Of a stretch of DNA of 64,000 bases, positions 4,650 through 51,989 are shown piece after piece. Position 1 is the first letter of the stretch; every line of letters starts with the position of its first letter. The notes beneath the pieces were generated by a model that saw only the letters and a list, made by a program, of their open reading frames with translations, was not told the DNA's origin and did no database searches. Position numbers and translations under genes: made by a program. Location: assembly GCA_964648725.1 (NCBI GenBank), contig CAZYOE010000001.1, positions 7,424 to 71,423 on the forward strand, read 5' to 3'. The stretch comes from an uncultured Pseudobdellovibrionaceae bacterium. GTDB lineage: Bacteria; Bdellovibrionota; Bdellovibrionia; Bdellovibrionales; Bdellovibrionaceae.

Positions 4650-4693
4650 CAAGGCGGCAAGGAGAAGGGCTAGGAGCTAAATGGAAATGGTAT
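4650..4693. repeat. Short copy of an intergenic repeat shared with 46321..46450
   Basis: caaggcggcaaggagaagg (4650-4668) is identical to 46321-46339, and ctaaatggaaatggtat (4677-4693) to 46434-46450. The ~86-nt GC-rich insert and the left arm of the long copy are absent here. Confidence 0.7.
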
Positions 4694-4775
4694 GAATTGA
4701 GGATAACAATCAACAAGAATTAGCAAGCGAGACGGAAGCGACCAAAGGCCTCGATCGGAATTTCAATCTTCGAGA

Positions 4776-10144: not shown

Positions 10145-10561
10145 ATGAAACAATTGTTTTCAATCACCTTGGTTTTTCTCTTTTCCCTGATGACTTTCGC
10201 CGAAACAGATCAGGCCGTCGATAACTCACTTAAAGACACCAAAGATCTATTAAAAGATAAAACCCAAAGAGAGGCTGTCTTTAAAAAGGACGCCAAAGCT
10301 AAAGCGGCTGATGATACCGTTCAAAACCTCACTGGAGGAGATGCAGCTCAAACACAGCAGGTTTACGACATTTCAGCGGATGCATTTGCTGCGATCATGC
10401 AAAGCGTTGGTAACGACCCTAATAAAGCAATGGAACTTCTGCAAAAAGCCCAAGGTAATCCCGAAGCTTTTTATAATAGTTTACCCAATGACGTACGAAT
10501 AAAAATTCGCGGCGTTGCCAGTGAGATCGAAAAAAAGGGTGCAGCAAAGAGTAAACCCTAG
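10145..10561 (+). CDS. Small secreted protein, unknown function
   Basis: 138 aa; signal peptide MKQLFSITLVFLFSLMTFA; AGGGGG SD. Confidence 0.5.
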   Translation: MKQLFSITLVFLFSLMTFAETDQAVDNSLKDTKDLLKDKTQREAVFKKDAKAKAADDTVQNLTGGDAAQTQQVYDISADAFAAIMQSVGNDPNKAMELLQKAQGNPEAFYNSLPNDVRIKIRGVASEIEKKGAAKSKP

Positions 10562-16541: not shown

Positions 16542-17846
16542 TTAAATATGAACTCCAGGCTCGTTAGAATGAGACTTTGCTTCAGCAAGCAACTCTTCGG
16601 CTTTACCACCCAGCCAAAAAGCATTAATCACCCAGACCAATGCAATCGCACTTGATAGAAATGAAAAACCAGTTAATCCAAGCCCCACCTTTTGAAAGCC
16701 CGCAAACAAACTTGCCGAAGAAACATCGCCAGTTCGATATACCAGAGTATCTATCACATTTTTTGCCCGGTATTTTTGTTCCGCCGGTAAAACATTAAAG
16801 AGAGTTTCACGCGTAGGTTTAGCCACCGAATATTCACCGGCCCGTCTGAGGATTGCGAAGGCCAATAGGATTTGTATACTCTGGCTAAATCCCAAGAGCA
16901 AGAATCCGGCGATTGAGAGTATCGGCAAAACCAAAAGACCAATCCGCCGCCCATATTTTCCGATAATTCTACTAAATAAAAAAAACTGACTCAAGAGAGA
17001 GAGGAAATTTACGGCCAAATCCAATTGCGCGAGAATTTTTGTACGCTGAGTTGGATCTTGGTAGACTTGCGGAAACAGATCGGTCGACATGCCATAAAGA
17101 AATGTGGATAAAATCGTATAAAAAAACAGATAAACGCAGATTCCCAGAAGATATCGTGACTTTATAATATCACCAAGACCGGAAAAAATGGAACCACCAA
17201 AGCCATGGGATGACTCAATCTTCGATACTTGCTCGCCGACTTGATTAGAACTCTCTCTTCGAAGCAGCTGCACGGAAAGAATGGCCAAAGTGAGAAACCC
17301 ACAAGAAACCAAAACAAGGTACTTAGCCCCTATAACATCCACCATCAGGGCTGTAATAAGAGGGCCCGCCAAAGCACCCAGCGTCCCACCCGCGCTGATA
17401 AAACCATTAATGCGACTCGACTGCTCGGTGGTAAAAATGTCGGCCATAAAGCTCCAAAAAACTGAAATTACAAAGAGGCTATATACGCTGACCCAAACAA
17501 AAAAACTTTTGGCCACCCACTCTGACTGTACCCCTTGACTATTAAACATCAGATAAAACAGGAAAAGAGTAGCACCGAAAAAAACATATACTCGTGGCAA
17601 GACGGCGCCTCGGGGGAAGTTTTTGGTAATCCACCCAAACACCGGAACTAAAATCATCATAACAACAAAGACACTAAAGAAATTCTCTTGGAGACTTTTG
17701 GAGCCAAGTTGCATAGACATTTCATCCCGAATGGGACGCAAAACATAATAGGAGGCCAGCAAACAAAAAAAGTAGGTAAAGGAAATTAAAACAGCATGTA
17801 GTTCTTCGTCTTTGATTTTAAAAAACTTCCAAGCTAGTTCCTTCAT
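16542..17846 (-). CDS. MFS-type transporter with Tlc/Npt (ATP:ADP antiporter family)-like N-terminus
   Basis: 434 aa, about 11-12 hydrophobic segments. N-terminal FTYFFCLLASYYVLRPIRDEM resembles the signature start of TLC-family carriers. Subfamily uncertain. Confidence 0.65.
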   Translation of the reverse strand: MKELAWKFFKIKDEELHAVLISFTYFFCLLASYYVLRPIRDEMSMQLGSKSLQENFFSVFVVMMILVPVFGWITKNFPRGAVLPRVYVFFGATLFLFYLMFNSQGVQSEWVAKSFFVWVSVYSLFVISVFWSFMADIFTTEQSSRINGFISAGGTLGALAGPLITALMVDVIGAKYLVLVSCGFLTLAILSVQLLRRESSNQVGEQVSKIESSHGFGGSIFSGLGDIIKSRYLLGICVYLFFYTILSTFLYGMSTDLFPQVYQDPTQRTKILAQLDLAVNFLSLLSQFFLFSRIIGKYGRRIGLLVLPILSIAGFLLLGFSQSIQILLAFAILRRAGEYSVAKPTRETLFNVLPAEQKYRAKNVIDTLVYRTGDVSSASLFAGFQKVGLGLTGFSFLSSAIALVWVINAFWLGGKAEELLAEAKSHSNEPGVHI

Positions 17847-22051: not shown

Positions 22052-23557
22052 TTACAAAGTATAGTCTTTTGCATTTATACCGTATTTTTCGATTTTCCTT
22101 AATAAAGTTTTTTTAGGAATATTTGCATGAAGTGCTGTCTGATTAATACGCCCACGAAATGCCTTTAAAGCCCTGATAATAAAGTCCTTTTCAAAAGCTT
22201 CCTTCTGCATATTAAAATCAAAGGTTGGATCAGAAACAGAGGCACCGGCTGGATGCTCAAAATCCTCCTCGGCATCATCACCCAAATCCATTTCCAAACC
22301 TAATTGTGCAGTCGGTGCTAATGCAAACGCCACTGGAGTTTCAGTATTGGCAAGAACCTCCTGCCAATCTTTAAGAGTGATCCCCACTGCCTGAAGTACA
22401 AACTCTGGTAAGGACGCTAGAGTAATCTGATCGGAATTCTCCATTACAAAGGCGTGTTCAATCACGTTTTCAAGTTCACGAATATTTCCCGGCCAATCAT
22501 AGCGAATCAAAACCTGCATCGATGCAGGATCAACACCAGTGACTTTTTTGCTATGAACTTGGTTGAACTTGCGAACAAACAAATTGATCATGGTGGGTAT
22601 ATCGTCTCTGCGCTCGCTCAACTGAGGGAGAAATATAGGAATAACATTTAAACGATAAAATAAATCCTCTCTAAACGTTCCTTGCTTAATCATGTCTTCG
22701 AGGGGTCTGTTTGTCGCAGCGATGATTCTCACGTTGGTTTGAATTTCCCGCAATGATCCCACGGGAGTAAAAACTTTTTCTTGTAAAACTCGGAGCAACT
22801 TGACTTGCATGTGCAAGGGCAAATCACCCACTTCATCTAAAAAGAGGGTTCCTCCCTCGGCAAATTGAAATTTGCCGATTTTGCGTTGATCGGCTCCAGT
22901 AAAAGACCCTTTTTCATGACCAAAAAATTCTGATTCAAATAAGTTTTCCGGAACGGCAGAGCAATTAACTGCTACAAATTTTTCATCTTTGCGAGCCGAA
23001 TTGAAGTGAATGGCTCTTGCCACCACCTCTTTACCTGTTCCTGAGGCTCCTCGAATCAAAACTGGAGTATCTACTTTAGATACGCGTTCGATAATACTGA
23101 ACACCTTCTGCATTTGTGCAGTATTCCCGATAATTTTACGACCTTGCTCCATTAAAACGGGTGCCGACACCGCAACATTAGAGATTAATCGATGGGCCTC
23201 AATAGCTTTTTCTAAAACTTGAATGAGGTCATCACCACTGACGGGCTTTGCCAAATAGTTATAGGCACCATCTTTGACTGCTTGCACAGCATTATCAATC
23301 GTTGCAAAAGCGGTCATAATTAAAACGATAGTCTCAGGGTTAAGGGCTTTAATTTGTTTGAGTGCTTCAAGACCTGAAAGGCGTGGCATATCGACATCAA
23401 GGATGACAACGTCGAAAGACTGCCTTTTTACTTTTTCCAAGGCATCAATGCCGTCAAAAGCTTCTTCAACTTCGTACTTTTGAGTGCTTAAAAGCACACC
23501 TTTTAAGGCAGTTCTTAGGCCTTGATCATCATCAACAACCAGCACTCTGAGCGCCAT
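22052..23557 (-). CDS. NtrC-family sigma-54-dependent response regulator (REC + AAA+ + HTH)
   Basis: ATG at 23557 behind a GGGAGGA SD (the ORF track starts at GTG 23575). REC VLVVDDD...ILDVDMPRLSG...KP. GASGTGKE, ESEFFGHEKGSFTGA. C-terminal HTH after a long acidic linker. Confidence 0.9.
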   Translation of the reverse strand: MALRVLVVDDDQGLRTALKGVLLSTQKYEVEEAFDGIDALEKVKRQSFDVVILDVDMPRLSGLEALKQIKALNPETIVLIMTAFATIDNAVQAVKDGAYNYLAKPVSGDDLIQVLEKAIEAHRLISNVAVSAPVLMEQGRKIIGNTAQMQKVFSIIERVSKVDTPVLIRGASGTGKEVVARAIHFNSARKDEKFVAVNCSAVPENLFESEFFGHEKGSFTGADQRKIGKFQFAEGGTLFLDEVGDLPLHMQVKLLRVLQEKVFTPVGSLREIQTNVRIIAATNRPLEDMIKQGTFREDLFYRLNVIPIFLPQLSERRDDIPTMINLFVRKFNQVHSKKVTGVDPASMQVLIRYDWPGNIRELENVIEHAFVMENSDQITLASLPEFVLQAVGITLKDWQEVLANTETPVAFALAPTAQLGLEMDLGDDAEEDFEHPAGASVSDPTFDFNMQKEAFEKDFIIRALKAFRGRINQTALHANIPKKTLLRKIEKYGINAKDYTL

Positions 23558-24330
23558 AGTTCCTCCCGGCCACACTTAACCTTGCCAATTTACGTCCCGT
23601 GCCAGTCATAACTCATTGTATTAAAATAACAAGTATAAAAATCTTTGAGGGCGCTCAAAAAAAATCTAATGACTTTTACTATTCATTAGTAATTTTAACA
23701 ATTTAAAGAGGCGGTTTTCACCCTCAATTGTGACGACTTTCCCAAGGAGCTGTCAATTCAGTTTGGAATGGCATTGCCCGTTGTTCCTTGCCGGGTCTCC
23801 GAAGGGTCTCCGAATTATAGAAGGTGACTCAATTTGTTAGGACCTAGGTCGAATATTGTTTTAGAAAGAAAAAAGTCCATCAAACAAGACCTTTCGCATA
23901 AGCTTTAATTACCAGAAAAAACTCGCGGAGGTACAAGGATGGACTTCTCTAATCTCATCACTATTGCTCTAGACGATTAGGAATTCCAAAGCGGAAAGTA
24001 TGGCTTTCCAGAGGCCCTCAAAAGCCGGTCACAAAGAGCTTTCGAGTGACTTGAATGGGGCGTTTTCAACAATTTGCTGCTAAACAAGGATTATGTTTCA
24101 GCGGACGGGCGTGAAAATGGACTATTCAAAATCCTCCAAAGATGCGGTTATTTAAACTCAAAATACATTGATACAACTGGATTGTTTTGGGGACCAAATA
24201 ACAAGTTGGCACAAAGTACCCCCTTCTAATAAACGGAGAGGGCTTGCTCTTTCTGATTTGCAGGGCCCTTTCGTCAAAGACTTCGACACTCCCCAGTAGC
24301 ATTAAACAGCTTTTGTTTGCCCCGCGACCC

Positions 24331-24917: not shown

Positions 24918-26783
24918 TTAGTTGGTTAATGGGAGCTCAATCGTAAAGGTTGAGCCCTTGTTTTCCTCACTTGATGCTGTCAACGTTCCGTTGTGCAACT
25001 CAACAAAGTACCTCGATAAGTATAAGCCCAAGCCTGATCCCTTAACCTCTGAATTCTTAGCCTTTCTGCTTCTGAAAAATTTCATAAATAAACGCGGCAA
25101 CTCATCGTCTGGAATTCCAATTCCTTGATCCTTCACCTGAATAAAAACCTTATTATCTTTTTCTTCTGTTTTCACCGTGATCTGCGCTTCCGTCGGACTG
25201 TACTTGATAGCATTTTCCACGAGATTTAAAATTACTTGGCGAATCAAATCAGGATCGATTTTCATGCTGAACAGAGGTTCAAGCTCTTTAATAACTTTTA
25301 TCTTTTTCTCTTTCGCTAAATAGTCTGTTTTCTGCAGAACCTCTTCAATTAAAGTATTCACGTCTTTGCTCTTCAAATTGAGTTGCACGCCTTCCGTTTC
25401 CAAACGGCTAAAGTTAAGAATCGAACTAATAAAATTCAGCAAATCCTCTGTGGAGCTCTGAATCGATTTAACCGCCTGCCGTTGGTCATCACTCAGTGCG
25501 TTTTTATCGCGAAGAACAATTTCAATCATCCCTTGAATTCTGGCCAAGGGTGTTTTCAGATCATGCGACATCATTCCAATGAAGTTGTTTTTGAGTTCTT
25601 CAACCTGTGTAAGCAATTTATTTTTTTGATAAAGCTCCCAACTTCGCCGATTTTCCATAATGAGGCGATAGGGAATCAAAAAATAATAGGCCACAAAAAC
25701 CCCAAGCAATGGATGAGCCATATTAATCCAATACCCAAATGGCCAAAATGCGATGAAGGAACTGGTTGCAAAAACTAATAGTGTGATCCCTAGAACGGTC
25801 ATTCCTTTGATCGGCTTCATCGCCAAAACAACTTCAAGTGACAAAATTACCAAGAGCATTACGATCAAAAAATTGATCCAGCGAGGTATCGCTTTTACCC
25901 CTGAGTTACGAATGAGTGAGTTTAACATATTAGCATGGGCCTCAACAGCAGTCATCGCTGTAACCTGCCGCGAATATGGAGTTTTAATATACTCATGAGT
26001 GCTTTGCCCAAGATCCGTTCCCACAAAAATAATCTTGTTGTTGAATCGGCCTTTGGTAAATTTGGAGCCCACTATGTCAATAAAACTTGTTTTAGGAAAA
26101 GTGCCGGCAGGAGCCATGTCTATATAGGCCTGCTCGCTATCATAAAAATCAAAACGACCTCGTATATTATGGGGCAAGGCACGCTCAGGAATAACTTGGC
26201 TAGCTAAATACGGATGGAACAAAATATTGCCTTGATACGTTAGCATCATTCGTCTGGTCACACCATCCTGAGCTAAAATCTTCGAATCCGAAGTAATCGG
26301 ACCCGACAAAACACGAATTTCCCTGAGTGGGCCAGGCAAATCAAACTTACCAACCTCACCGCGCATCGCAAGCTCATCGGTGACAAAATAAAATCCCGGC
26401 AACGAGAGGGCAAGTTCGGCAAAAACTTTGCGTTCAGAATCTTTACCGACTAGATCTTTTGGGTTAAGCAGGTAAACGACCACTTTGGGGTTTTCATTTT
26501 TCAATTGAGTTAAAAACCGAATATGTTGTTGAAGAGTGGGTATGCCTGGAGCGGTCTGAACTGTAACAGGATCTATAATAACTGTCTCGATCAGCTTACT
26601 CGCCAAAGGAGCAGGCCTAATCATAGTCCGTAAGTCATAAAGATAAGATTCAAAGTAATCAAGAGGCAGTAAGAGAACAACGACCGAAATAATTGCCGCC
26701 AAAATCCATCGTAATAGCCTAAAGGAAGTTCTTTTATTCAGTTTTTTAATAAGTAGATTCGCACTTCCTTGCGACTTTCGCAC
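24918..26783 (-). CDS. CHASE2-domain sensor histidine kinase
   Basis: 621 aa. N-terminal TM, ~270-aa extracytoplasmic domain, three clustered TMs, H box MSHDLKTPL, N/G boxes (NLVENAIKYS, DQGIGI, GSGLGL). Confidence 0.85.
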   Translation of the reverse strand: MRKSQGSANLLIKKLNKRTSFRLLRWILAAIISVVVLLLPLDYFESYLYDLRTMIRPAPLASKLIETVIIDPVTVQTAPGIPTLQQHIRFLTQLKNENPKVVVYLLNPKDLVGKDSERKVFAELALSLPGFYFVTDELAMRGEVGKFDLPGPLREIRVLSGPITSDSKILAQDGVTRRMMLTYQGNILFHPYLASQVIPERALPHNIRGRFDFYDSEQAYIDMAPAGTFPKTSFIDIVGSKFTKGRFNNKIIFVGTDLGQSTHEYIKTPYSRQVTAMTAVEAHANMLNSLIRNSGVKAIPRWINFLIVMLLVILSLEVVLAMKPIKGMTVLGITLLVFATSSFIAFWPFGYWINMAHPLLGVFVAYYFLIPYRLIMENRRSWELYQKNKLLTQVEELKNNFIGMMSHDLKTPLARIQGMIEIVLRDKNALSDDQRQAVKSIQSSTEDLLNFISSILNFSRLETEGVQLNLKSKDVNTLIEEVLQKTDYLAKEKKIKVIKELEPLFSMKIDPDLIRQVILNLVENAIKYSPTEAQITVKTEEKDNKVFIQVKDQGIGIPDDELPRLFMKFFRSRKAKNSEVKGSGLGLYLSRYFVELHNGTLTASSEENKGSTFTIELPLTN

Positions 26784-44489: not shown

Positions 44490-45563
44490 TTATTTGCTAC
44501 GGTTTGAGTACCAGGTTTGGTGCGCACTTTGAAGTAAGCGTTTTTTATTTACGCCCTTTATTTGCGTCCACTTCTCTGGGTTTAAAATGAGTCGAAGCAA
44601 TAAATCGAACAAAAGTTGGTGACGCCGAAAGGCTCGATGCCGGCGATGAGGTAGAATTGGATCAAAAATCCCACCTGGACGAAAAACTTGACTGGGATTT
44701 TTTCTTACCCACGTCCAAGAGCCCATTTCCAAACAGAGAGGGATAAATGTTGAAGTGCACTTTTTGCAGTGCTCATCATAAATATAATCCCACAAATCTC
44801 CATGAGTGACGTAATTAACGGCTTGTGGTTCCACCTTATAAACGTGATAAGGATAAGTTTTATCGAGAGTCTCTTTAATTGCCATCATTTCCGCAAGATG
44901 ACCAAACGGCTCCAGGGTTTTTGCATAGGGAAACCAAAGCTGATCCTTAAAACCAAAGCCAGAATGCACATCAAGGCTGACGGCCGCCTTGCTTTCGCTG
45001 ATTTCCTCAGAGATATGCGTGATGAGTGCTTTGGCTTCAGGCTCTAATGGTGCCCCTGTTTCGCCTCGATACCATGGGAGAATGGAACCAATCCTATGAC
45101 CACTCAACAATGGAACGGTTTTACCCCTAGCCTCGACAGGAGCATTCCGCATCAAATCAATGCCATTGGCATTCGATCTCCGGCTCAGAGCCATTCCCCA
45201 GGGATTGAGCAAGGGAATAAAAATAACACGCATATTTTTGAGAGCCGCTTTAATGTATCCGTCCCACTGAGCTAATTCATTAAAGCTAAACAGCAAAGCC
45301 TTAACGACCTGAGTACCAATTCGCTCTAGGCCATGCACGCCGCCGACGAGAATTAAAGTGGGTTTTCTGACATCGTCTGAACCGTAACAGAATTTATAAA
45401 TTGGGAGATCACTGACCGCTAAATTGGAAAAGTTTAATTTCTCTGGAAGCGTCACCATTTCCATTGTTTCAACTCTTCCAATACATCTACTTGCAATGAA
45501 TCTTTCAATATCTCGAAGCTCTGGTAGATTTTTTTCGATTAGCTGTGCTTTATCCACGATCAA
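44490..45563 (-). CDS. M14-like zinc carboxypeptidase / DUF2817-type protein
   Basis: 357 aa. GGVHGLERIG (HxxE zinc ligands) and VSLDVHSGFG (third His). TTG/GTG start uncertain. Confidence 0.65.
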   Translation of the reverse strand: MIVDKAQLIEKNLPELRDIERFIASRCIGRVETMEMVTLPEKLNFSNLAVSDLPIYKFCYGSDDVRKPTLILVGGVHGLERIGTQVVKALLFSFNELAQWDGYIKAALKNMRVIFIPLLNPWGMALSRRSNANGIDLMRNAPVEARGKTVPLLSGHRIGSILPWYRGETGAPLEPEAKALITHISEEISESKAAVSLDVHSGFGFKDQLWFPYAKTLEPFGHLAEMMAIKETLDKTYPYHVYKVEPQAVNYVTHGDLWDYIYDEHCKKCTSTFIPLCLEMGSWTWVRKNPSQVFRPGGIFDPILPHRRHRAFRRHQLLFDLLLRLILNPEKWTQIKGVNKKRLLQSAHQTWYSNRSK

Positions 45564-45640: not shown

Positions 45641-46274
45641 CATTGGGAATCAAGACTTAGTCGTTTATAGTAAGTCGGCGAACTCCCCCTGCGATATTCT
45701 GAATCATACTTGGAGAGTGCCATTTGCCAAAAACTAGTCACTTTATACTGAACACTGAGCTGTTGGCCCATCGAATCGGTTTCACCTTTGGCTAGATCTG
45801 CATCGGTGAAAGCTGCAACAACAGCATCAGCCTCAGCGCGACCCTGCCCATAGAGGAAGGAATAGGGCCCATTTGCTAAGGAAAAACCGCACCAGCCACC
45901 TTGATTTTATGTTTGAGTTGATTCGAATCAATCCATCCAGTGTTTGAACTAGATTTGTTGACGAAAATACCGATGCCATCAAGACCAATAACATGAGGAA
46001 CAATTGTTACTCCTTGAGCCGTCGCTTGCTGGAGAACTTCGGGTTTTCTTTCGCGGGACATTGGCGCAATCCCTTGTTCCCCGGCAGCAATAGCTTTTTC
46101 ACCATTTCCACTTCCGCCGCCGGCATAAGAAATTTGCTGTTCCAAACCACCTGCGATAATCGCATCGGTCATAACTCCGGCCAATGTATCTGAGCCAGAA
46201 AAAACGTGTTTTGCCTGAGATTTTGCACCCAAGCCCGAAATAATGATTAGGCTTAAAAATGATTTTCTTAACAT
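45641..46274 (-). pseudogene. Disrupted PstS-family (PBP-like_2) substrate-binding protein gene
   Basis: Intact SD+ATG and 132 aa (signal peptide, SGSDTLAG..., GGGSGNGEKA, SRE...) end at a stop. A further ~90 stop-free codons continue in another frame (GPYSFLYGQGRAEADAVVAAF...), and the total is much shorter than typical family members. Confidence 0.55.
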
Positions 46275-46294
46275 GCGAACTCCTTTGTTTGGTT

Positions 46295-46450
46295 ATACCA
46301 TTTCCAGTTAGAAAGTAGACCAAGGCGGCAAGGAGAAGGCGCGGAGCCTTACTCCCTGTAAGGCGCACACGAGGCGGGGTTTCCCCTCTGTGAAGGGGTG
46401 CCTCGGACGACGCAGCCAACGATGGGCTACGAACTAAATGGAAATGGTAT
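46295..46450. repeat. 156-nt structured element with 17-nt terminal inverted repeats and a GC-rich core (long copy of the 4650..4693 repeat)
   Basis: ataccatttccagttag (46295-46311) / ctaaatggaaatggtat (46434-46450) pair 16 of 17. Further pairing gtagacc/gggctac and ggcggc/gcagcc. Internal hairpins gccttac-tccct-gtaaggc and cgaggc[gggg ttt cccc tctgtga agggg t]gcctcg. Confidence 0.65.
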
Positions 46451-46485: not shown

Positions 46486-46502
46486 TGTTAAGCTTCTGTT
46501 AA
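46486..46502 (-). promoter_or_regulatory. Direct-repeat box D (TTAACA-gaagc-TTAACA)
   Basis: Minus-strand hexamers with 11-bp periodicity, between the sixA stop and the repeat element / PstS-like remnant. No good -10 at the 21-nt distance seen at boxes A-C. Confidence 0.45.
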
Positions 46503-46526
46503 AAAGTTGGCTGTGTTTCTCAAAAC

Positions 46527-47033
46527 CTATTTAACCCCGATAGACTTGGGCGTTAAGGCCCAGTTCAAAGTACCAGATTCCGGTCGAATGGAATCTTCAA
46601 CTGAAATCGAAAGGCAGCCGCCTTTTTTAATTTTGATTTTGCTTTGATAAATTCCAAATAACAGCCAACTCGCGAATATGCTTAGATGAGGTTCATGGCC
46701 AACGACGATGATTTTTTTGGTTTTCTTCTTTAAATGCTCTTTGCACCATTTAGCAAATTCATTGGGATTTGCGAGAGGGGTCAATGCCAAGGAGCTGACG
46801 ATTTCAGTTTTTGGAAAATGGACCGCGAGAAGTTTAGTTGTTTGCTTCGCTCGAACCAAGGGTGAAGTTATGATGACGTCAGCTTCCCCAATGAGGGATT
46901 TTAATGCAGTGGCAATTTTTTTAAATCTCCTTATTCCCAACTCTGACAATGGACGCTGACTATCGTTGGAATTTTGAAGCTTAAATTCTTCTCGATCCAT
47001 TGCGATGGCGTGACGTATAATAAATATTTCCAC
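46527..47033 (-). CDS. sixA: Phosphohistidine phosphatase SixA-like (histidine phosphatase superfamily)
   Basis: 168 aa. IFIIRHAIA (RH catalytic motif), RPLSELG, ITSPLVRAKQT, VGHEP. Confidence 0.75.
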   Translation of the reverse strand: MEIFIIRHAIAMDREEFKLQNSNDSQRPLSELGIRRFKKIATALKSLIGEADVIITSPLVRAKQTTKLLAVHFPKTEIVSSLALTPLANPNEFAKWCKEHLKKKTKKIIVVGHEPHLSIFASWLLFGIYQSKIKIKKGGCLSISVEDSIRPESGTLNWALTPKSIGVK

Positions 47034-47049
47034 AGCTGGCGAATTTCCT

Positions 47050-47817
47050 TTATATGAGTGAACTTACAGTATGGAGTCGCGATGGAGAAGCTAAAACCGC
47101 TTTGAGGCGAAGATCATTATCCAGAGATTGTCCGCCATAGTACGCGAAGGAGAGATCTTGATTTCTTACCGCGCGCAAAATAGATCCTTCCGAACATTTT
47201 GCATGAAGCAGGGTTTTCCAAGAGCGCATCTGCTTTTTATGGTGAAGGTCACTGTTCGCTAACATTGGGAGTCCACTATTAAAGACTTCATCAAATAACT
47301 GCGCACCGCTTGCGACTTCCCATGCATCCATTAAACCAGTTAGTTCGTCTCGCTCCTTCCAGAGTTGCAAAGTCGGTATATAGGTTGGATCCATGGTGAA
47401 AACGGGATGAGCGGCTACTGTAATAGCGCCCTGCCGTCTAATCGCCTGTAGTACATCCAATATACTCTGATCGGGATCAACCCACTGTCTGACTCCAATT
47501 CCTAGGATATGGGCTGACCGTAGAGAGCGAAATGCATTTTTAGTGATTTCTATTCCAGGCAAAACGAGCATTTTATACTGTTTCCAGGCACGGTATGCCT
47601 GTAACTCAATCTCAGCGATGTACTCCGCGAATCGAGGCTTTGATAACGAACAGTTGAGCCAATGCGCCGCCAATCCAATGACTGAACTCGTCTCGCAAAC
47701 ATGATCTGTAATCGCTATAACTTTGAAATTCCGTGCACCAAAGAAATCGACAATCTCAGCGATTGAATGCTTACCATCGCTCCAATGACTGTGAATATGC
47801 AAATCACAAAGGAGCAC
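47050..47817 (-). CDS. PHP-domain metal-dependent phosphoesterase
   Basis: GTG at 47817 behind GAGGAGG-N5 (the ORF track extends to 47958, overlapping the upstream gene). CDLHIHSHWSDG motif, later ...ITDH and ...NSDLH. Confidence 0.75.
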   Translation of the reverse strand: MLLCDLHIHSHWSDGKHSIAEIVDFFGARNFKVIAITDHVCETSSVIGLAAHWLNCSLSKPRFAEYIAEIELQAYRAWKQYKMLVLPGIEITKNAFRSLRSAHILGIGVRQWVDPDQSILDVLQAIRRQGAITVAAHPVFTMDPTYIPTLQLWKERDELTGLMDAWEVASGAQLFDEVFNSGLPMLANSDLHHKKQMRSWKTLLHAKCSEGSILRAVRNQDLSFAYYGGQSLDNDLRLKAVLASPSRLHTVSSLI

Positions 47818-48547
47818 TAAGACCTCCTCTTGGAAAATTTCGAACCACTGATAACGGCCTAGCATGCCGCAATCCACTCTTCCCGAGATAGCCCAACAAT
47901 AATGAAAACGTATTCGTTGTATGATAGATAATAGGCTCGCTCCAGATCTGCAAACCACACTGTAAGAGCTGACTTAGTTTATGAGGGAGAAAATTCCTTT
48001 CAACCAACGTGCCCATCGACTGACTATTTTCTCTCGCTTCTAATCGTTTCTCATAACGTTCGCAATAAATGAATGAGGACTGAAAAGGACTTTGTTTTAT
48101 TTGCTCTTTCAGCATTTCTGTAGTTTCAGACTTATCAATATAGTTAACAACTAAAGCATCACTTCCGAGCATACTCATGATTTCAAGAGTTGCACTCTTA
48201 ATTGCTTGCTTGAATCCAAGTCTGTTCCAAGCCGTATCTGCGATTTCGAATTCAACAACTTCAAGACAGGACAGATCCATTCGTTCAATGGGAAAAGTGT
48301 CAAAGCGTTGACTCGCTATTAACTCACTACCCACCGTCGAAGCCTGAAACTTAATAAAACCCAGAATGGAGTTCAGTTTCTTCTCCACAATAAAAACAGA
48401 GTTTGCTTCGGCGTTCTTGTGAATCGAACTGATATCCAAATTATAGATGTTCCGAAATGGTCGGAGTTGCCTCAAGTTTTGGACTGACACCACCTCAAGA
48501 TCATTCACGGCAATTTTAATTTCAAATTTTTCCCAGAGTCTTCTCAC
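47804..48547 (-). CDS. Hypothetical protein (first gene of the hyp-PHP-SixA operon)
   Basis: 247 aa. GTG start behind an AGGTGA SD. No motif recognised. 14-nt overlap with the PHP gene. Confidence 0.45.
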   Translation of the reverse strand: MRRLWEKFEIKIAVNDLEVVSVQNLRQLRPFRNIYNLDISSIHKNAEANSVFIVEKKLNSILGFIKFQASTVGSELIASQRFDTFPIERMDLSCLEVVEFEIADTAWNRLGFKQAIKSATLEIMSMLGSDALVVNYIDKSETTEMLKEQIKQSPFQSSFIYCERYEKRLEARENSQSMGTLVERNFLPHKLSQLLQCGLQIWSEPIIYHTTNTFSLLLGYLGKSGLRHARPLSVVRNFPRGGLSAPL

Positions 48548-48595
48548 AACATCACCTAATTTACAGACTTACTTTCTTTATAATCCACACACTCT

Positions 48596-48639
48596 ATTTT
48601 ATACAAAATTACAGCAATTGCAGGTTAAGCTTCGGTTAA
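48596..48639 (-). promoter_or_regulatory. Direct-repeat box B + -10 (TTAACC-gaagc-TTAACC-N21-TAAAAT)
   Basis: Hexamers at 48634-48639 and 48623-48628 (minus strand), -10 at 48596-48601. ~50 nt upstream of GTG 48547. Overlaps the stop codon of the acyltransferase gene. Confidence 0.5.
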
Positions 48640-49356
48640 GACAGTTTTTGGATTGATAATTTTTTTAGTGACTGGACGAGCCTTCAAATCGTTACACCAG
48701 GACCGACAATACTCAAGTTCAGGATGAACATCCCGAACCAAAATTGGTTCATGCAACTCAACCTGAGCACTAATGTTTTTTTGTTTTCCCATTTTATAGA
48801 GATGATAGGGAAAGAAATCCTGATCAATATAAGCCACCTCACGTAGTTGTGAATAACTAATTCGAACTGGCAGAATCGGAATGACCAGATTTTTTGCGAT
48901 TTCAAAAACCCCTTTTCGCCAATATTTTTCGTCTCCAATGGTTGTCGTTCCCGCGGGAAACACGACGATTTTTTTCTTGTTCATCACCAATTCATGTTCT
49001 ATTTCCCGTCGTGCCTGATGATGTGACGACTTTGACCCTCGGGTTACGAATACCGTCTCAATTTTCTTTGCAGCCTTACCGAATAAAGGCCAGCTTGCAA
49101 TTTCCACTTTCGAAACAAAGCAGCAGTTTTCAATAGTCGCCATTAATAAGGGGATGTCCATATAACTAATATGATTAGCAACGTAAATGGCGGGACCGCT
49201 AATGGCAGGCAACGGGCTGACAGCAACCTGAAAATTTAAAATCGATAACACCTCGCGAGCCCAGGCTTTCCTTACTTGAGGACTAATTATTGAACTGATT
49301 TCGTTTTCCTTTAGATATTTTTTGGTTAACATTAACGACTGAACCGCTTTGATCAT
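48625..49356 (-). CDS. Lysophospholipid (PlsC-family) acyltransferase, OlsA-like
   Basis: 243 aa. HX4D motif NHISYMD, FPAGTTT motif. No SD in front of the ATG. Confidence 0.8.
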   Translation of the reverse strand: MIKAVQSLMLTKKYLKENEISSIISPQVRKAWAREVLSILNFQVAVSPLPAISGPAIYVANHISYMDIPLLMATIENCCFVSKVEIASWPLFGKAAKKIETVFVTRGSKSSHHQARREIEHELVMNKKKIVVFPAGTTTIGDEKYWRKGVFEIAKNLVIPILPVRISYSQLREVAYIDQDFFPYHLYKMGKQKNISAQVELHEPILVRDVHPELEYCRSWCNDLKARPVTKKIINPKTVLTEA

Positions 49357-49363
49357 AAAAACG

Positions 49364-49407
49364 ATAATAGCGCCATTTCAAAAAAATCTTCGTTAAGGTT
49401 CTGTTAA
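49364..49407 (-). promoter_or_regulatory. Direct-repeat box A + -10 (TTAACA-gaacc-TTAACG-N21-TATTAT-N7-ATG)
   Basis: Hexamers at 49402-49407 and 49391-49396 (minus strand), -10 at 49364-49369. The ATG of the acyltransferase is at 49356. Confidence 0.5.
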
Positions 49408-49449
49408 GGTTGTATGCGCGCGCGAAGTCTCTCTTCTTGATTTGTCAAA

Positions 49450-49491
49450 TTAACCAAAAGCTAACACGACAAAGATGTTTTTATTTATAAT
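49450..49491 (+). promoter_or_regulatory. Direct-repeat box E + -10 (TTAACC-aaaag-CTAACA-N19-TATAAT)
   Basis: Plus-strand hexamers at 49450-49455 and 49461-49466. Perfect TATAAT at 49486-49491, 10 nt before the ATG at 49502. Confidence 0.45.
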
Positions 49492-49501
49492 ACTAAACAT
49501 A

Positions 49502-50437
49502 ATGTATTTATCTTCATTTAATTTTTTAGGTATAGGCACACAACAGGGACAACGCCAATTAGGCTTGGTTGATTCTGCAGAAATCGCATTAAGACTAATG
49601 CCAAATCATTGGCCTATGGCTGAAAAACGAATCCTTACTGATTATGGAGAAGCGCAGGTCATTCATCGCACCGAAGACTTTTCTCAGCTTAGCTGGGCTA
49701 TTTATTTGAAGGCTCGGCAGCAGATCCGCAAAAACCTGCGCCAAGGACAACTCCAGTTAAACTGGGGTGGTGACCATAGCGTTGGACTTTCTTCAGTTGC
49801 GGCATTTACCTCGTTTTACTCTAATGGTTATGTGCTTTGGATAGATGCTCATGCTGATTTAAACACACCGGAATCAAGTCCAACCGGTAACTTTCATGGA
49901 ATGCCACTTTCGATCTTGTTGGGCATTGGTGAAGAACCAACAGAGATGGAACTTCCGTTTTGGAAGGTTCTTGATCCTCGTCGTTTAATCTATTTTGGGC
50001 TTCGGGATCTCGACCCCTATGAAAAATACTTAATTCAGAAACTAGGGATCACTGCTTACTCGTGCGAAGACCTAAACAACGCTGATTTCATGAATTGCGT
50101 GAATGCCATAAAACTTAAGATCGCACATCGCCCCCACCATATCAGTTTTGACATCGATTCGGTTGACCCAGTTATTGCTCCTTCCACTGGAGTTTCCAGT
50201 TGCAATGGTCTGAATCCAATTCAGCTCGAGCTGCTAGCCCAGCAATTTGGGACCCAAAACAATATAAAATCGATGGATGTTGTAGAAATCAATCCATCCA
50301 TTGGCAGCACAAGTGACGTCCAAAATACTTATAACGTCGCCTTCAACTTTTTAGATCAACTTTTTAATTTCACGAGGGGGAGTATTTATGATGCAAATCA
50401 TTCAACAATTAAAAACGAATTACAAGTTCCATTCTAA
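49502..50437 (+). CDS. Arginase (ureohydrolase family)
   Basis: GGDHSVG, WIDAHADLNTPESSPTGNFHGMPL and SFDIDSVDP motifs, as in RocF-type arginases. The ORF-track start at 49475 lies between box E and its -10, so the ATG at 49502 is preferred. Confidence 0.8.
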   Translation: MYLSSFNFLGIGTQQGQRQLGLVDSAEIALRLMPNHWPMAEKRILTDYGEAQVIHRTEDFSQLSWAIYLKARQQIRKNLRQGQLQLNWGGDHSVGLSSVAAFTSFYSNGYVLWIDAHADLNTPESSPTGNFHGMPLSILLGIGEEPTEMELPFWKVLDPRRLIYFGLRDLDPYEKYLIQKLGITAYSCEDLNNADFMNCVNAIKLKIAHRPHHISFDIDSVDPVIAPSTGVSSCNGLNPIQLELLAQQFGTQNNIKSMDVVEINPSIGSTSDVQNTYNVAFNFLDQLFNFTRGSIYDANHSTIKNELQVPF

Positions 50438-51230
50438 AGGAGTCTTTCGGTTCAACCCTAAAATTCATTTTCAGTTTGCAATGGGCCCATATTTAGTAAA
50501 AACAGCTGAAAATCGAAATGAGCTCATTGAGTGTTTCAAATTAAGAGATGAAGTCTTTAATAAAGAATTCCGTGGCCTCACTAATACTGAATTTGATTTT
50601 GATCAGTTCGACTCTATTTGTGATCATATCATTATTGTTCACCATCAAACGCAAACTCTGGTCGGAACTTATCGACTTAATTCATCCCTTCATTCTAAGT
50701 CTTTTTATACTGAGCAAGAGTTTGAGATCAAAAATCTTAACTATCTTAAAGGACCGATTTTAGAATTAGGAAGAGCCTGTATTAGAAAAGAGCACCGCAA
50801 GGGAACTGTCATGAATCTGCTCTGGAGGGGGGTTGCCGAATATATGAATCACTCCCACTCCCAAACTCTATTTGGCTGCTCTAGTGTAAAAATCACCGAC
50901 GCCAGGGATGCAGCGTTAGTCTATCAGTATCTTAAAACTAAAGGGCACCTTGATTTGAGATATTTAGCTAAACCGCAACCAGCCTACGAAATGGACGGGT
51001 TTGCAATTTGGCATGATTATATTCAACAGGATTTTTCAGAAGCCCTTGCCACCGAAGCGGAACAATTATTACCTCCCCTGCTTAAATCTTATTTCAAAAT
51101 TGGCGCCAAGGTGATTGCGGAACCTGCTTTCGACGAAGAGTTCAACTGTGTCGATTTTCTCACGCTACTACATCGGGACCGGCTTTCGAAGACAGCTGAA
51201 AAGAAATACGGATTGGAAATACCCGCCTAA
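50388..51230 (+). CDS. GNAT-type N-acyltransferase, OlsB-like (lyso-ornithine-lipid synthase family)
   Basis: GGGGGAG SD. LRDEVFNKEF..., D.FD..CDHIIIVH, VGTYRL and ELGRACIRKEHR layout typical of the Acetyltransf_5/OlsB family. Overlaps the arginase 3' end by 50 nt. Confidence 0.65.
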   Translation: MMQIIQQLKTNYKFHSKGVFRFNPKIHFQFAMGPYLVKTAENRNELIECFKLRDEVFNKEFRGLTNTEFDFDQFDSICDHIIIVHHQTQTLVGTYRLNSSLHSKSFYTEQEFEIKNLNYLKGPILELGRACIRKEHRKGTVMNLLWRGVAEYMNHSHSQTLFGCSSVKITDARDAALVYQYLKTKGHLDLRYLAKPQPAYEMDGFAIWHDYIQQDFSEALATEAEQLLPPLLKSYFKIGAKVIAEPAFDEEFNCVDFLTLLHRDRLSKTAEKKYGLEIPA

Positions 51231-51237
51231 TATTGTA

Positions 51238-51939
51238 CTAACTCTCTGGGGTGAATCGGTAGCCGACACCCCTCACCGTCCAGATGGATTCACTCCACGG
51301 TGCCAATTTCTTTCGTAATGAAAATAAATGCGTGTCAACGGTTCTCCCAATGACATTGACATCGGCACCTTGAATCAATGAAAGTATTTTCTCTCTGGTC
51401 AACACCACATTGGGATTTGCTAAAAGGGCACATAATAATCGAAACTCGGTGTTCGTTAAATCAACGGGTTGACCTTCTAGAAGCACCTGCATTTTTTGCT
51501 GACTCACCCAAAGCGTTCCAAAGTGAAAGTGATCCTCTGGCGGTTCATTATGCTGCTGCAATCTGCGAAGCAAAGCCGATATCCTGGAAACGAGTACTCT
51601 TGAATCGAAAGGTTTAGTGACATAGTCATCAGCACCCAGATCAAGTCCATGAACAATATCTTCAGGGTCGGCTTTGGCGGTGACCATGAGAATCGGCGGG
51701 CAATGACTTTTCAAGGCCTTTCGCAAATAAACCAAAAGATCTATCCCACTCTCGTCAGGCAACATCCAATCCAAGACAATGAGATCATAACTTTCCGTCG
51801 CCAAACAGCTTCGGGCCATCTCGCTACTTTCCGCTGAGCGCAAAGTATACCCCTGTCGTAACAGCACCAGCGAAATAAGCTCCCGGATTTCACGTTCATC
51901 TTCAACAATCAATATTTTATATTTCGTCAAGTTTTCCAC
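51238..51939 (-). CDS. OmpR/PhoB-family response regulator (PhoB-like), no adjacent kinase
   Basis: 233 aa, GTG start. ILIVEDE, LIVLDWMLPDESGI, GADDYVTKPF. Winged helix TEFRLL...RTVDTHLFSLRKKL...VRGVGYRF. Confidence 0.9.
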   Translation of the reverse strand: MENLTKYKILIVEDEREIRELISLVLLRQGYTLRSAESSEMARSCLATESYDLIVLDWMLPDESGIDLLVYLRKALKSHCPPILMVTAKADPEDIVHGLDLGADDYVTKPFDSRVLVSRISALLRRLQQHNEPPEDHFHFGTLWVSQQKMQVLLEGQPVDLTNTEFRLLCALLANPNVVLTREKILSLIQGADVNVIGRTVDTHLFSLRKKLAPWSESIWTVRGVGYRFTPES

Positions 51940-51945
51940 TGGCCT

Positions 51946-51989
51946 AATATACTCCTCGTGGACAACATTGACTGTTAAGTTACGGTTAA
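51946..51989 (-). promoter_or_regulatory. Direct-repeat box C + -10 (TTAACC-gtaac-TTAACA-N21-TATATT-N6-GTG)
   Basis: Hexamers at 51984-51989 and 51973-51978 (minus strand), -10 at 51946-51951. The GTG of the regulator is at 51939. Confidence 0.5.

Follow-up and report, generated by a model that had tools for sequence, protein, structure and literature searches.

The window, the whole 64-kb stretch of DNA analysed here, carries a group of genes around an orphan response regulator of the OmpR/PhoB family, together with a truncated phosphate-binding-protein gene and an inserted repeat element. The features are as follows:

51238-51939, minus strand: OmpR/PhoB-family response regulator, 233 aa (Pfam Response_reg and Trans_reg_C)
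49502-51230, plus strand: arginase/OlsB-like operon of two genes
49502-50437, plus strand: arginase-family ureohydrolase (Pfam Arginase, 156 bits; NCBIfam arginase, 175 bits)
50388-51230, plus strand: OlsB-like N-acyltransferase (Pfam Acetyltransf_5, 94.6 bits; NCBIfam OlsB, 119 bits)
48625-49356, minus strand: OlsA-like lyso-lipid O-acyltransferase (Pfam Acyltransferase, 82.7 bits)
46527-48547, minus strand: hyp-PHP-SixA operon of three genes (Pfam, NCBIfam)
47804-48547, minus strand: lineage-restricted hypothetical protein, first gene of the hyp-PHP-SixA operon
47050-47958, minus strand: longest reading frame of a PHP-domain phosphoesterase, start probably near 47818
46527-47033, minus strand: SixA, which passes its NCBIfam cut-off (82.7 vs 74.5 bits)
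46292-46450, no strand assigned: inserted repeat element (~159 nt) whose GC-rich core is enclosed by 31-nt terminal inverted repeats
45876-46274, minus strand: truncated PstS-like gene, encoding a signal peptide and ~113 aa of the N-terminal lobe

For the OlsA-like gene the top specific NCBIfam hit is OlsA (77.6 bits), and the OlsA, OlsB and arginase scores all fall under the NCBIfam equivalog cut-offs. The arginase and OlsB-like pair is syntenic in four orthologous loci (L081, L084, L086 and L090), and the hyp-PHP-SixA gene order is likewise conserved in orthologous loci; the family of the hypothetical protein comprises 10 clusters among 1.84 billion representatives. The PstS-like gene scores 45 bits with the NCBIfam PstS family against a cut-off of 206.6, and its homology to relatives stops at 45954 (homologue alignment; tblastn and blastn against L093). 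The repeat element sits inside the leader of this gene, right beside one of the boxes described below (box D), and folds with z = -4.3; it has no match in Rfam and is missing from the same spot in L093. Further copies of the element exist and lack a box, and the element is outside the regulon.

A pattern search for exact TTAAC-N6-TTAAC returned four matches in the window, all on the minus strand (46487-46502, 48624-48639, 49392-49407 and 51974-51989), against a chance level of 0.21 per window; none of 100 shuffled windows reached four. The one-mismatch copy TTAACCAAAAGCTAAC at 49450-49465 on the plus strand completes a set of five boxes, although the one-mismatch pattern alone is not enriched in the window (11 matches vs 6.0 expected). 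With the scores of the weight matrix introduced below, the boxes are:

49391-49407, minus strand: box A, TTAACAgaaccTTAACG, upstream of the OlsA-like gene; exact match; 22.2 bits
48623-48639, minus strand: box B, TTAACCgaagcTTAACC, upstream of the hyp-PHP-SixA operon; exact match; 29.1 bits
51973-51989, minus strand: box C, TTAACCgtaacTTAACA, upstream of the regulator gene; exact match; 21.1 bits
46486-46502, minus strand: box D, TTAACAgaagcTTAACA, upstream of the truncated PstS-like gene; exact match; 28.2 bits
49450-49466, plus strand: box E, TTAACCaaaagCTAACA, upstream of the arginase/OlsB-like operon; one mismatch; 21.5 bits

A preliminary description of the locus had reported these five boxes, and on rechecking their positions, strands and sequences, the spacer gaagc common to boxes B and D, the distances to the -10 elements and the surrounding gene calls (Pfam and NCBIfam profile searches) all proved correct. 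A 22-nt weight matrix trained on 19 sites from the window and its orthologues scored the five boxes at 21.1-29.1 bits and the next best site in the window at 15.7, a separation that is partly circular because the five window sites belong to the training set; dinucleotide shuffles gave 0.01 matches of at least 20 bits per window, against five real sites of at least 21 bits. Placement is also non-random: ~90% of the window is coding, yet all five boxes lie directly upstream of gene starts, box B overlapping the last codons of the olsA-like gene.

We compared the window with six orthologous loci, probably from Bdellovibrionota, whose regulators are 55-73% identical. Upstream of the regulator gene, the sole columns invariant in all six loci are TTAAC, TTAAC and TATA; across the orthologous loci, boxes and -10 elements are kept while the spacers drift. 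Box C is kept in L081, L084, L086, L088 and L089 and half-conserved in L090; box A is kept in L081, L088 and L090, the L084 and L086 copies being weak; box B is kept in L084, L086, L088 and L090; and box E, as TTAAC-N6-CTAACACGAC, is kept in L084, L086 and L090, with a weaker copy, AAACACGAC, in L081. Both boxes of the divergent olsA/arginase region are conserved among orthologous loci. An identical copy of box D occurs in L093, 3' of sixA and 5' of a PstS-like gene (86% identical); in relatives the boxes recur before the regulator, olsA, arginase, hyp-PHP and PstS-like genes. A PhoX gene adjoining olsB in L090 lacks a box.

Four of the boxes are followed at short distance by a -10 element:

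51946-51951, minus strand: regulator promoter, TATATT; 21 nt from box C, 6 nt to GTG 51939
49364-49369, minus strand: olsA promoter, TATTAT; 21 nt from box A, 7 nt to ATG 49356
48596-48601, minus strand: hyp-PHP-SixA promoter, TAAAAT; 21 nt from box B, 48 nt to GTG 48547
49486-49491, plus strand: arginase promoter, TATAAT; 19 nt from box E, 10 nt to ATG 49502

Downstream of box D, for which the preliminary description claimed no -10, we likewise found no convincing one. The arrangement of box, N21/22, -10, 6-8 nt and start codon is kept in the orthologues of the regulator and olsA genes: TATA and a gap of 6-7 nt to GTG or ATG are maintained before the regulator in six lineages, and the olsA gap measures 6-8 nt in L081, L088 and L090. 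Such short gaps between -10 and start codon suggest that the regulator and olsA mRNAs are leaderless, and perhaps the arginase mRNA too. The repeats had further been described as an OmpR/PhoB-type array with 11-bp periodicity replacing the -35. The direct-repeat architecture stood up, and a consensus promoter scan paired none of the box-linked -10 elements with a -35; the box itself, however, abuts the -35 position without covering it, at a box-to--10 distance of 21-22 bp.

The best NCBIfam match of the regulator is PhoB (TIGR02154), at 210.6 bits under an equivalog cut-off of 296.2, compared with 146.3 bits for the PmrA family. In the alignment D57, T87 and K109, taken to be the receiver phospho-acceptor and switch residues, are invariant. 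The regulator and its orthologues group apart from canonical PhoB, as a sister clade that was monophyletic in 94 of 100 resamplings. Outside it, the closest homologues belong to canonical phoU-phoB-phoR loci; such a PhoB may therefore be present alongside the regulator and bind the same sites. The recognition helix RTVDTHLFSLRKKL is almost the same as that of canonical Bdellovibrio PhoB, RTIDTHVFGLRKKL, three positions differing between the canonical and orphan proteins. The regulator has no neighbouring histidine kinase gene in the window, nor do its orthologues at five of the six loci (at the sixth, L089, the neighbours are two PAS kinases, not phoR), and neither the window nor any orthologous locus links it to phoR, phoU or pst.

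To relate the motif to phosphate genes, we ran the same matrix on PhoB loci of other phyla, 1.3 Mb in total. Two of the three top matches precede pst-type genes as tandem repeats, namely pstSCAB in L016 and a PstS-family gene in L001. At least four further lineages of the phylum have canonical ppk-sixA-ppx-phoU-phoB-phoR loci; two of these loci (L091 and L119) carry a strong box beside phoU, on the strand opposite to it. By this proxy, the expected link of the motif to phosphate genes was borne out, before pstSCAB and a PstS-family gene and beside phoU.

Together, these data suggest, with a probability of roughly 60%, that the boxes are predicted sites of a PhoB-type activator that controls its own gene together with a local module for lipid remodelling and phosphate, a switch of a familiar bacterial kind. 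An OmpR/PhoB-family regulator, most likely the product of the gene at 51238-51939, would sit as a phosphorylated dimer head-to-tail on a pair of YTTAAC(A/C) half-sites spaced by 11 bp, positioned at about -50 to -34 and directly upstream of the would-be -35, and would recruit RNA polymerase to promoters with a good -10 and without a -35, presumably activating rather than repressing them. It would turn on its own gene, most likely through box C as the predicted autoregulation site, and a compact neighbouring module: the arginase, OlsB-like and OlsA-like genes, which may supply ornithine and then yield a phosphorus-free ornithine lipid; the hyp-PHP phosphoesterase-SixA operon as a second target group; and, as a further target, the now-decayed gene for a PstS-like phosphate-binding protein. 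The signal would most likely be phosphate limitation, relayed by a kinase encoded elsewhere, possibly canonical PhoR. The PhoB/PhoP-like regulon around an orphan regulator that had been proposed earlier is supported by box conservation, by the association of the motif with pst and phoU genes elsewhere and by the likeness of the boxes to known Pho boxes.

Several observations count against this reading: the sole pst gene of the module is a truncated remnant; the regulator falls under the PhoB cut-off, in its own clade and without phoR, phoU or pst linkage; box D lacks a clear -10; the L090 PhoX is boxless and the phoU boxes lie on the opposite strand; the box-to--10 distance is long; and OlsA, OlsB and arginase fall under their cut-offs. 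The sub-cut-off score of the regulator, its separate clade and its lack of an adjacent phoR-type kinase would also fit a diverged PhoB paralogue that remodels the envelope via ornithine lipid in the manner of PmrA/PhoP, in response to another stress, for instance pH, cations, antimicrobial peptides or a stage of a predatory life cycle. The PmrA box, YTTAAK-N5-YTTAAK, is also similar to the boxes, and the boxless PhoX points the same way. Ornithine lipid, moreover, is inducible by several stresses of which low phosphate is just one (PMC12971839). We consider a signal other than phosphate unlikely, since PhoB rather than PmrA is the best family match, the boxed PstS-like gene is kept in L093, the module includes SixA and a PHP phosphoesterase, and the same motif stands before pstSCAB and beside phoU elsewhere.

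A somewhat more doubtful alternative is that the boxes are Pho boxes of the ordinary kind whose main binding protein is a canonical PhoB with its gene elsewhere in the genome; the orphan regulator would then be just another target with different or redundant specificity. The canonical loci in other lineages of the phylum, the motif in two of them and the near-identical recognition helices favour it; against it, no canonical phoB has been shown in the same genome, and the regulator gene is preceded in six lineages by a fixed-spacing box (half-conserved in L090) that is co-inherited with the module, the usual signature of autoregulation. That the repeats are chance matches, alternative-sigma promoter elements or relics of the repeat element is close to refuted: TTAACA is one base off the -35 consensus TTGACA and a real repeat element adjoins box D, but 21-22 nt is too great a distance between a -35 element and its -10, two phased copies persist in relatives even as their spacers diverge, the other copies of the element lack a box, and the excess over shuffles is large.

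The autoregulated activator that we favour can be set beside several known systems. E. coli PhoB binds CTGTCAT-type 11-bp direct repeats that lie 10 bp upstream of the -10 and replace the -35; the window shares the two coding-strand direct repeats in 11-bp phase, the -10 without a -35, the receiver and winged-helix architecture and the proposed autoregulation of the regulator gene, whereas its half-site sequence differs, phoR is not adjacent and the box-to--10 distance, 21-22 bp vs ~10 bp, is one helical turn longer. The recognition helix of the window regulator has F-S where E. coli PhoB presumably has R200-R201. B. subtilis PhoP boxes are TT(A/T/C)ACA direct repeats spaced by ~5 bp, and TTAACA-N5-TTAACA fits both half-site and spacing exactly; PhoP core promoters typically have four repeats, and their regulator comes from a phoPR operon.

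The SphR Pho box of Synechocystis PCC 6803 consists of at least three tandem 8-bp repeats, CTTAACCT, with 3-bp linkers (PMC1906773). Read together with the adjoining bases, box B is CTTAACCG-aag-CTTAACCT, matching this consensus, linker and 11-bp phase, and both systems have a PhoB-family binding protein (a putative one here) and sites upstream of phosphate-related genes; the window differs in having two repeats, in belonging to another phylum, in its mainly lipid-gene targets and in a regulator without an adjacent kinase gene or pst linkage. In Proteobacteria, olsB and olsF are under established PhoB/Pho-box control, ornithine lipid taking the place of phospholipid when phosphate is scarce (PMC7814305, PMC12971839). 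The window likewise has a Pho-box-type site before ornithine-lipid synthesis genes, but here a dedicated orphan regulator gene lies within the lipid cluster, olsA and olsB are divergent with one box each, and an arginase-family gene is co-transcribed with olsB; in a text search of a 2026 ornithine-lipid review the word 'arginase' was absent. The canonical Bdellovibrionota ppk-sixA-ppx-hyp-phoU-phoB-phoR locus differs in that its box lies on the strand opposite to phoU and that the window regulator belongs to a sister clade without phoU or phoR neighbours, but it shares a 46-52% identical regulator with a nearly identical recognition helix, an associated SixA gene and the TTAACA/CTAACA direct repeat itself.

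Five direct-repeat boxes (A to E) lie among genes whose calls in the preliminary description were borne out by Pfam and NCBIfam. Genes and boxes are as follows, in window coordinates.

51973-51989, minus strand: box C, before the regulator gene
51238-51939, minus strand: OmpR/PhoB-family response regulator; best family PhoB TIGR02154, 210.6 bits, cut-off 296.2
50388-51230, plus strand: OlsB-like; Acetyltransf_5 domain, below the OlsB equivalog cut-off (118.9 vs 350)
49502-50437, plus strand: arginase family; Arginase domain, below the arginase equivalog cut-off
49450-49466, plus strand: box E, before the arginase and OlsB-like genes
49391-49407, minus strand: box A, before the OlsA-like gene
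48625-49356, minus strand: OlsA-like; Acyltransferase domain, below the OlsA equivalog cut-off (77.6 vs 300)
48623-48639, minus strand: box B, before the hypothetical-PHP-SixA genes
47804-48547, minus strand: hypothetical protein; no family
47050-47958, minus strand: PHP phosphoesterase; longest ORF, start probably near 47818
46527-47033, minus strand: SixA; above its cut-off
46486-46502, minus strand: box D, before the PstS fragment
45876-46274, minus strand: PstS fragment; 45 bits vs cut-off 206.6

The 64-kb window contains four exact matches to TTAAC-N6-TTAAC (46487-46502, 48624-48639, 49392-49407 and 51974-51989, all on the minus strand) against 0.21 matches expected from dinucleotide-preserving shuffles, none of 100 of which reaches four. 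With box E (49450-49465, plus strand) as a copy carrying one mismatch, the five boxes originally claimed are all there, and their quoted sequences, including the spacer gaagc common to B and D, proved correct on re-reading. Direct repeats in 11-bp phase are present in all five and are kept in orthologous loci. Allowing one mismatch, the bare pattern shows no enrichment in the window (11 observed vs 6.0 expected); for this reason a 22-nt weight matrix was derived from 19 sites of the window and orthologous loci. Boxes A to E score 21.1-29.1 bits and the next best window position 15.7, a separation that is partly circular because the five window sites are among the 19 used for training; shuffled windows hold 0.01 matches of at least 20 bits. 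Although the window is about 90% coding, every box stands immediately 5′ of a gene start and points toward that gene, just as had been described.

Compared with relatives, the boxes held up. Contigs carrying five of the closest regulator homologues (P0002, P0004, P0006, P0007 and P0009) have a common gene order: the regulator; olsB and arginase, divergent from olsA; then olsA, the hypothetical gene, PHP, SixA or a glycosyltransferase, and an M14 peptidase. Locus L090 is rearranged, with a PhoX gene directly after olsB, and in L089 (the locus of homologue P0008) the regulator adjoins two PAS kinases. Across six lineages, only TTAAC, TTAAC and TATA never vary upstream of the regulator, and all six keep the layout of box, unconserved 21-nt spacer, TATAnn, 6-7 nt and GTG or ATG; in a seventh, L090, spacing, -10 and the proximal half-site survive. 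In the window, L081, L088 and L090, olsA is preceded by the same layout, its -10 standing 6-8 nt before the ATG. Both boxes of the divergent olsA/arginase region are conserved, the arginase box extending to CTAACACGAC, and the box before hyp-PHP recurs in L084, L086, L088 and L090 with a leader of 35-58 nt. Box D has an identical copy in L093, where an 86%-identical PstS-like gene directly follows sixA. A weaker site (16.5 bits) precedes the glycosyltransferase gene of L084 (14935-14956, plus strand), and no box was detected in the 170 nt upstream of PhoX in L090 (10598-12199).

Boxes A, B and C are followed after 21 nt, and box E after 19 nt, by -10 elements that match at five or six of six positions, with the spacings first reported; box D has no convincing -10 following it. 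A consensus scan found no -35 partner for the box-linked -10 elements. If transcription starts 7 nt after the -10, a box would span about -50 to -34 and so abut the -35 position from upstream rather than replace it. Inspection by eye of the 21-nt spacers in the regulator promoters showed no third half-site in phase. The -10 hexamers stand 6-8 nt before the start codons of the regulator (a GTG; 51937-51951) and olsA (49354-49369), a distance kept across lineages, and 10 nt before that of arginase in the window (49486-49504); the same short arrangement recurs at the corresponding places in L081, L084, L086, L088, L089 and L090. Shine-Dalgarno sequences are absent at these three starts, whereas the PstS-like gene has a classic AAAGGAG. 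From the 6-8 nt gap, together with the absent Shine-Dalgarno, the regulator and olsA mRNAs are predicted to be leaderless, one of them beginning with GUG.

The regulator combines a receiver (Response_reg, 94.3 bits) with an OmpR/PhoB-type winged helix (Trans_reg_C, 71.9 bits), and D14, D57, T87 and K109, which we take to be the phospho-acceptor aspartate and switch residues, are invariant in its alignment. The label PhoB-like is apt, since PhoB is the best of 96 matching families, yet its score remains under the equivalog cut-off for PhoB proper. Assignment as a PmrA orthologue was rejected (146.3 bits against a cut-off of 330, well under the PhoB score). No kinase gene adjoins it in the window or in L081, L084, L086, L088 and L090; the three ORFs upstream of it are without family match, and more than 20 kb separate it from the window's two kinases. 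Neither the window nor the clade loci showed linkage to phoR, phoU or pstSCAB; homologues from outside the clade (P0010, P0051) sit within phoU-phoB-phoR. Elsewhere in the window (16542-17846, 22052-23575 and 24918-26783, all minus strand) are genes without a box, for an MFS protein with a weak match to TLC ATP/ADP transporters and for a sigma-54 response regulator near a CHASE2 histidine kinase.

The closest homologues (P0002-P0009) are 55-73% identical to the regulator (P0001), and the nine form one clade in 94 of 100 resamplings, sister to 51 other best hits that include canonical PhoBs. The next group, about 50% identical, has members named from Bdellovibrionia, Bdellovibrionota and Bdellovibrio bacteriovorus, which makes it probable that the window is from a Bdellovibrionota lineage. 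A contig scan with the whole regulator returned, among the matches listed, generic PhoB loci at 34-47% identity, and the loci recovered from metagenome contigs with a fragment of the DNA-binding domain specific to the clade were all more distant (56% identity at most) and for the most part canonical PhoB. The recognition helix reads RTVDTHLFSLRKKL in the window regulator, RTIDTHVFGLRKKL in canonical Bdellovibrio PhoB and RTVDVHIRRLRKAL in E. coli PhoB. Judging from these helices, the orphan and canonical Bdellovibrio PhoB probably read the same half-site.

The PhoB loci of other phyla from the first of these scans (L001-L080, 1.32 Mb) served as an unplanned control for the matrix, and six matches in them reached at least 14 bits. 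The top three comprise a site near a contig end (L003), a box about 75 nt 5′ of a PstS-family gene followed by pstB (L001), and, at L016 5433-5480 (plus strand), TTAACC-N5-CTAACG-N5-CTAACA-N5-CTAACA directly 5′ of pstS-pstC-pstA-pstB, all above their cut-offs. L016 is from the deltaproteobacterium NaphS2, and its four 11-bp-phased repeats directly follow an IS701-family transposase gene. Since these repeats stand at pstSCAB, the TTAAC/CTAAC type of Pho box appears widespread outside cyanobacteria. In the canonical Bdellovibrionota locus, ppk-sixA-ppx-hyp-phoU-phoB-phoR, a strong box separates hyp from phoU, namely CTAACAgaatcCTAACA in B. bacteriovorus (L091 9243-9264, minus strand; 20.4 bits) and TTAACAgagacTTAACA in L119 (9228-9249, minus strand; 22.0 bits). 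This TTAACA/CTAACA repeat closely follows the upstream gene, leaving about 100 nt to phoU, but is on the strand opposite to phoU, and could serve repression, a distal activator or an antisense transcript; the AT-richer canonical loci L099 and L102 have no strong box. Within the window, the only pst/pho site is box D at the truncated PstS gene, and extending the contig yielded no pst or pho genes in the roughly 1.5 kb gained on one side and nothing on the other. Tetranucleotide composition did not tie the canonical phoB contig L119 to the organism of the window (0.84 vs 0.89-0.94 for clade loci).

Protein and DNA homology of the PstS gene to its relatives stops at 45954, after about 113 residues, and its leader carries an insertion:

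46292-46450: dispersed repeat element, about 159 nt long; terminal inverted repeats of 31 nt flank a GC-rich core

The element folds at -73.6 kcal/mol (z = -4.3) and is absent at the same spot in L093. At gathering thresholds no Rfam family matched the window, and none matched the PstS leader even at E up to 1. A second copy, shortened by an internal deletion, is found at window 4650-4712, and related genomes have diverged ones (L087 1-30, L089 50-70, L088 about 10400-10500). We rejected a riboswitch as the explanation of the structured leader, which is an inserted repeat that looks like a MITE- or REP-type element of the lineage. The M14 carboxypeptidase gene (window 44490-45563, minus strand; L086 6409-7476; L081 17967-19034) follows PHP at 3-13 nt in relatives and therefore probably forms one operon with it there; in L084 the glycosyltransferase gene with its own weaker box is inserted between the two, and in the window SixA, box D, the repeat element and the PstS remnant stand between them.

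The names OlsB-like and OlsA-like reflect Pfam domains present in proteins that fall below the equivalog cut-offs, and ornithine lipid is their inferred product. The hypothetical gene between olsA and PHP encodes 247 aa. Its product is of a very narrow family, with 10 clusters among 1.84 billion representatives, and has no Pfam or NCBIfam match and no significant match in a PDB-sequence profile search; residues ~100-157 give a faint GNAT-like hint, and its AlphaFold model, built from only 3 sequences, is unusable (pLDDT 31).

Together, these data confirm the boxes and support the regulon reading of the preliminary description, with qualifications as to the -10 of box D, the -35 position and PhoB membership. 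Chance, a sigma-factor element or repeat debris is close to excluded as their origin, given the spacing, the conservation and the statistics. In the OmpR/PhoB mode, a phosphorylated regulator dimer would bind head-to-tail on the direct repeats and recruit RNA polymerase to a promoter without a -35, and the box 5′ of its own gene implies that the regulator activates its own expression. As a set the targets suit a module for lipid remodelling and phosphate: ornithine would come from arginase and be built into ornithine lipid by OlsB and OlsA, PHP would act as a phosphoesterase and PstS would be a decayed phosphate-binding protein; SixA, a phosphohistidine phosphatase, also accompanies ppk and ppx in canonical loci. 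The PmrA/BasR box, YTTAAK-N5-YTTAAK, is similar, and a signal other than phosphate is possible, consistent also with the regulator's separate clade and sub-threshold PhoB score, the lack of an adjoining kinase gene and a PhoX gene without a box. It is possible, too, that the boxes are bound mainly by a canonical PhoB encoded elsewhere, as the nearly identical recognition helices would allow. Control of ols genes by PhoB and Pho boxes is established in Proteobacteria (PMC7814305, PMC12971839).

A further-reaching reading, less likely than not at a probability of roughly 0.3, is that the Pho response has been split in a Bdellovibrionota lineage: canonical PhoB, PhoR and PhoU would serve uptake, and a duplicated orphan paralogue of nearly the same DNA specificity would sit inside, and drive, its own membrane-remodelling cassette while regulating itself. 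The cassette would comprise arginase for ornithine, OlsB, OlsA, the clade-restricted GNAT-like protein and the PHP phosphoesterase, several of the mRNAs being leaderless, and the paralogue would receive its phosphoryl group from PhoR, by cross-phosphorylation, or from another kinase, and be trimmed by the co-regulated SixA. If the orphan is such a paralogue, with sites common to canonical PhoB, this would be a tidy partitioning of a regulon after duplication. What is modestly new is the orphan sister-clade regulator inside its own lipid cassette, the apparent leaderless promoters, the arginase-olsB coupling, a hint to the source of the lipid head group in an organism of limited amino-acid synthesis, and the clade-restricted protein. 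Current understanding is not overturned; the known link between phosphate stress and phosphorus-free ornithine lipid would be extended beyond Proteobacteria proper, and an uncultivated group of probably predatory-type bacteria, for which the literature searched held no described Pho box, gains a clean conserved regulatory motif and promoter layout.

Set beside known systems, TTAACA-N5-TTAACA fits the B. subtilis PhoP half-site, TT(A/T/C)ACA. The E. coli Pho boxes, described as 10 bp upstream of the -10, are nearer to it, the distance here being about 11 bp, or one helical turn, longer. With its flanks, box B reads CTTAACCG-aag-CTTAACCT, the same 8-bp repeat and 3-bp linker as in the SphR Pho box of Synechocystis, which consists of 8-bp CTTAACCT repeats with 3-bp linkers (PMC1906773).
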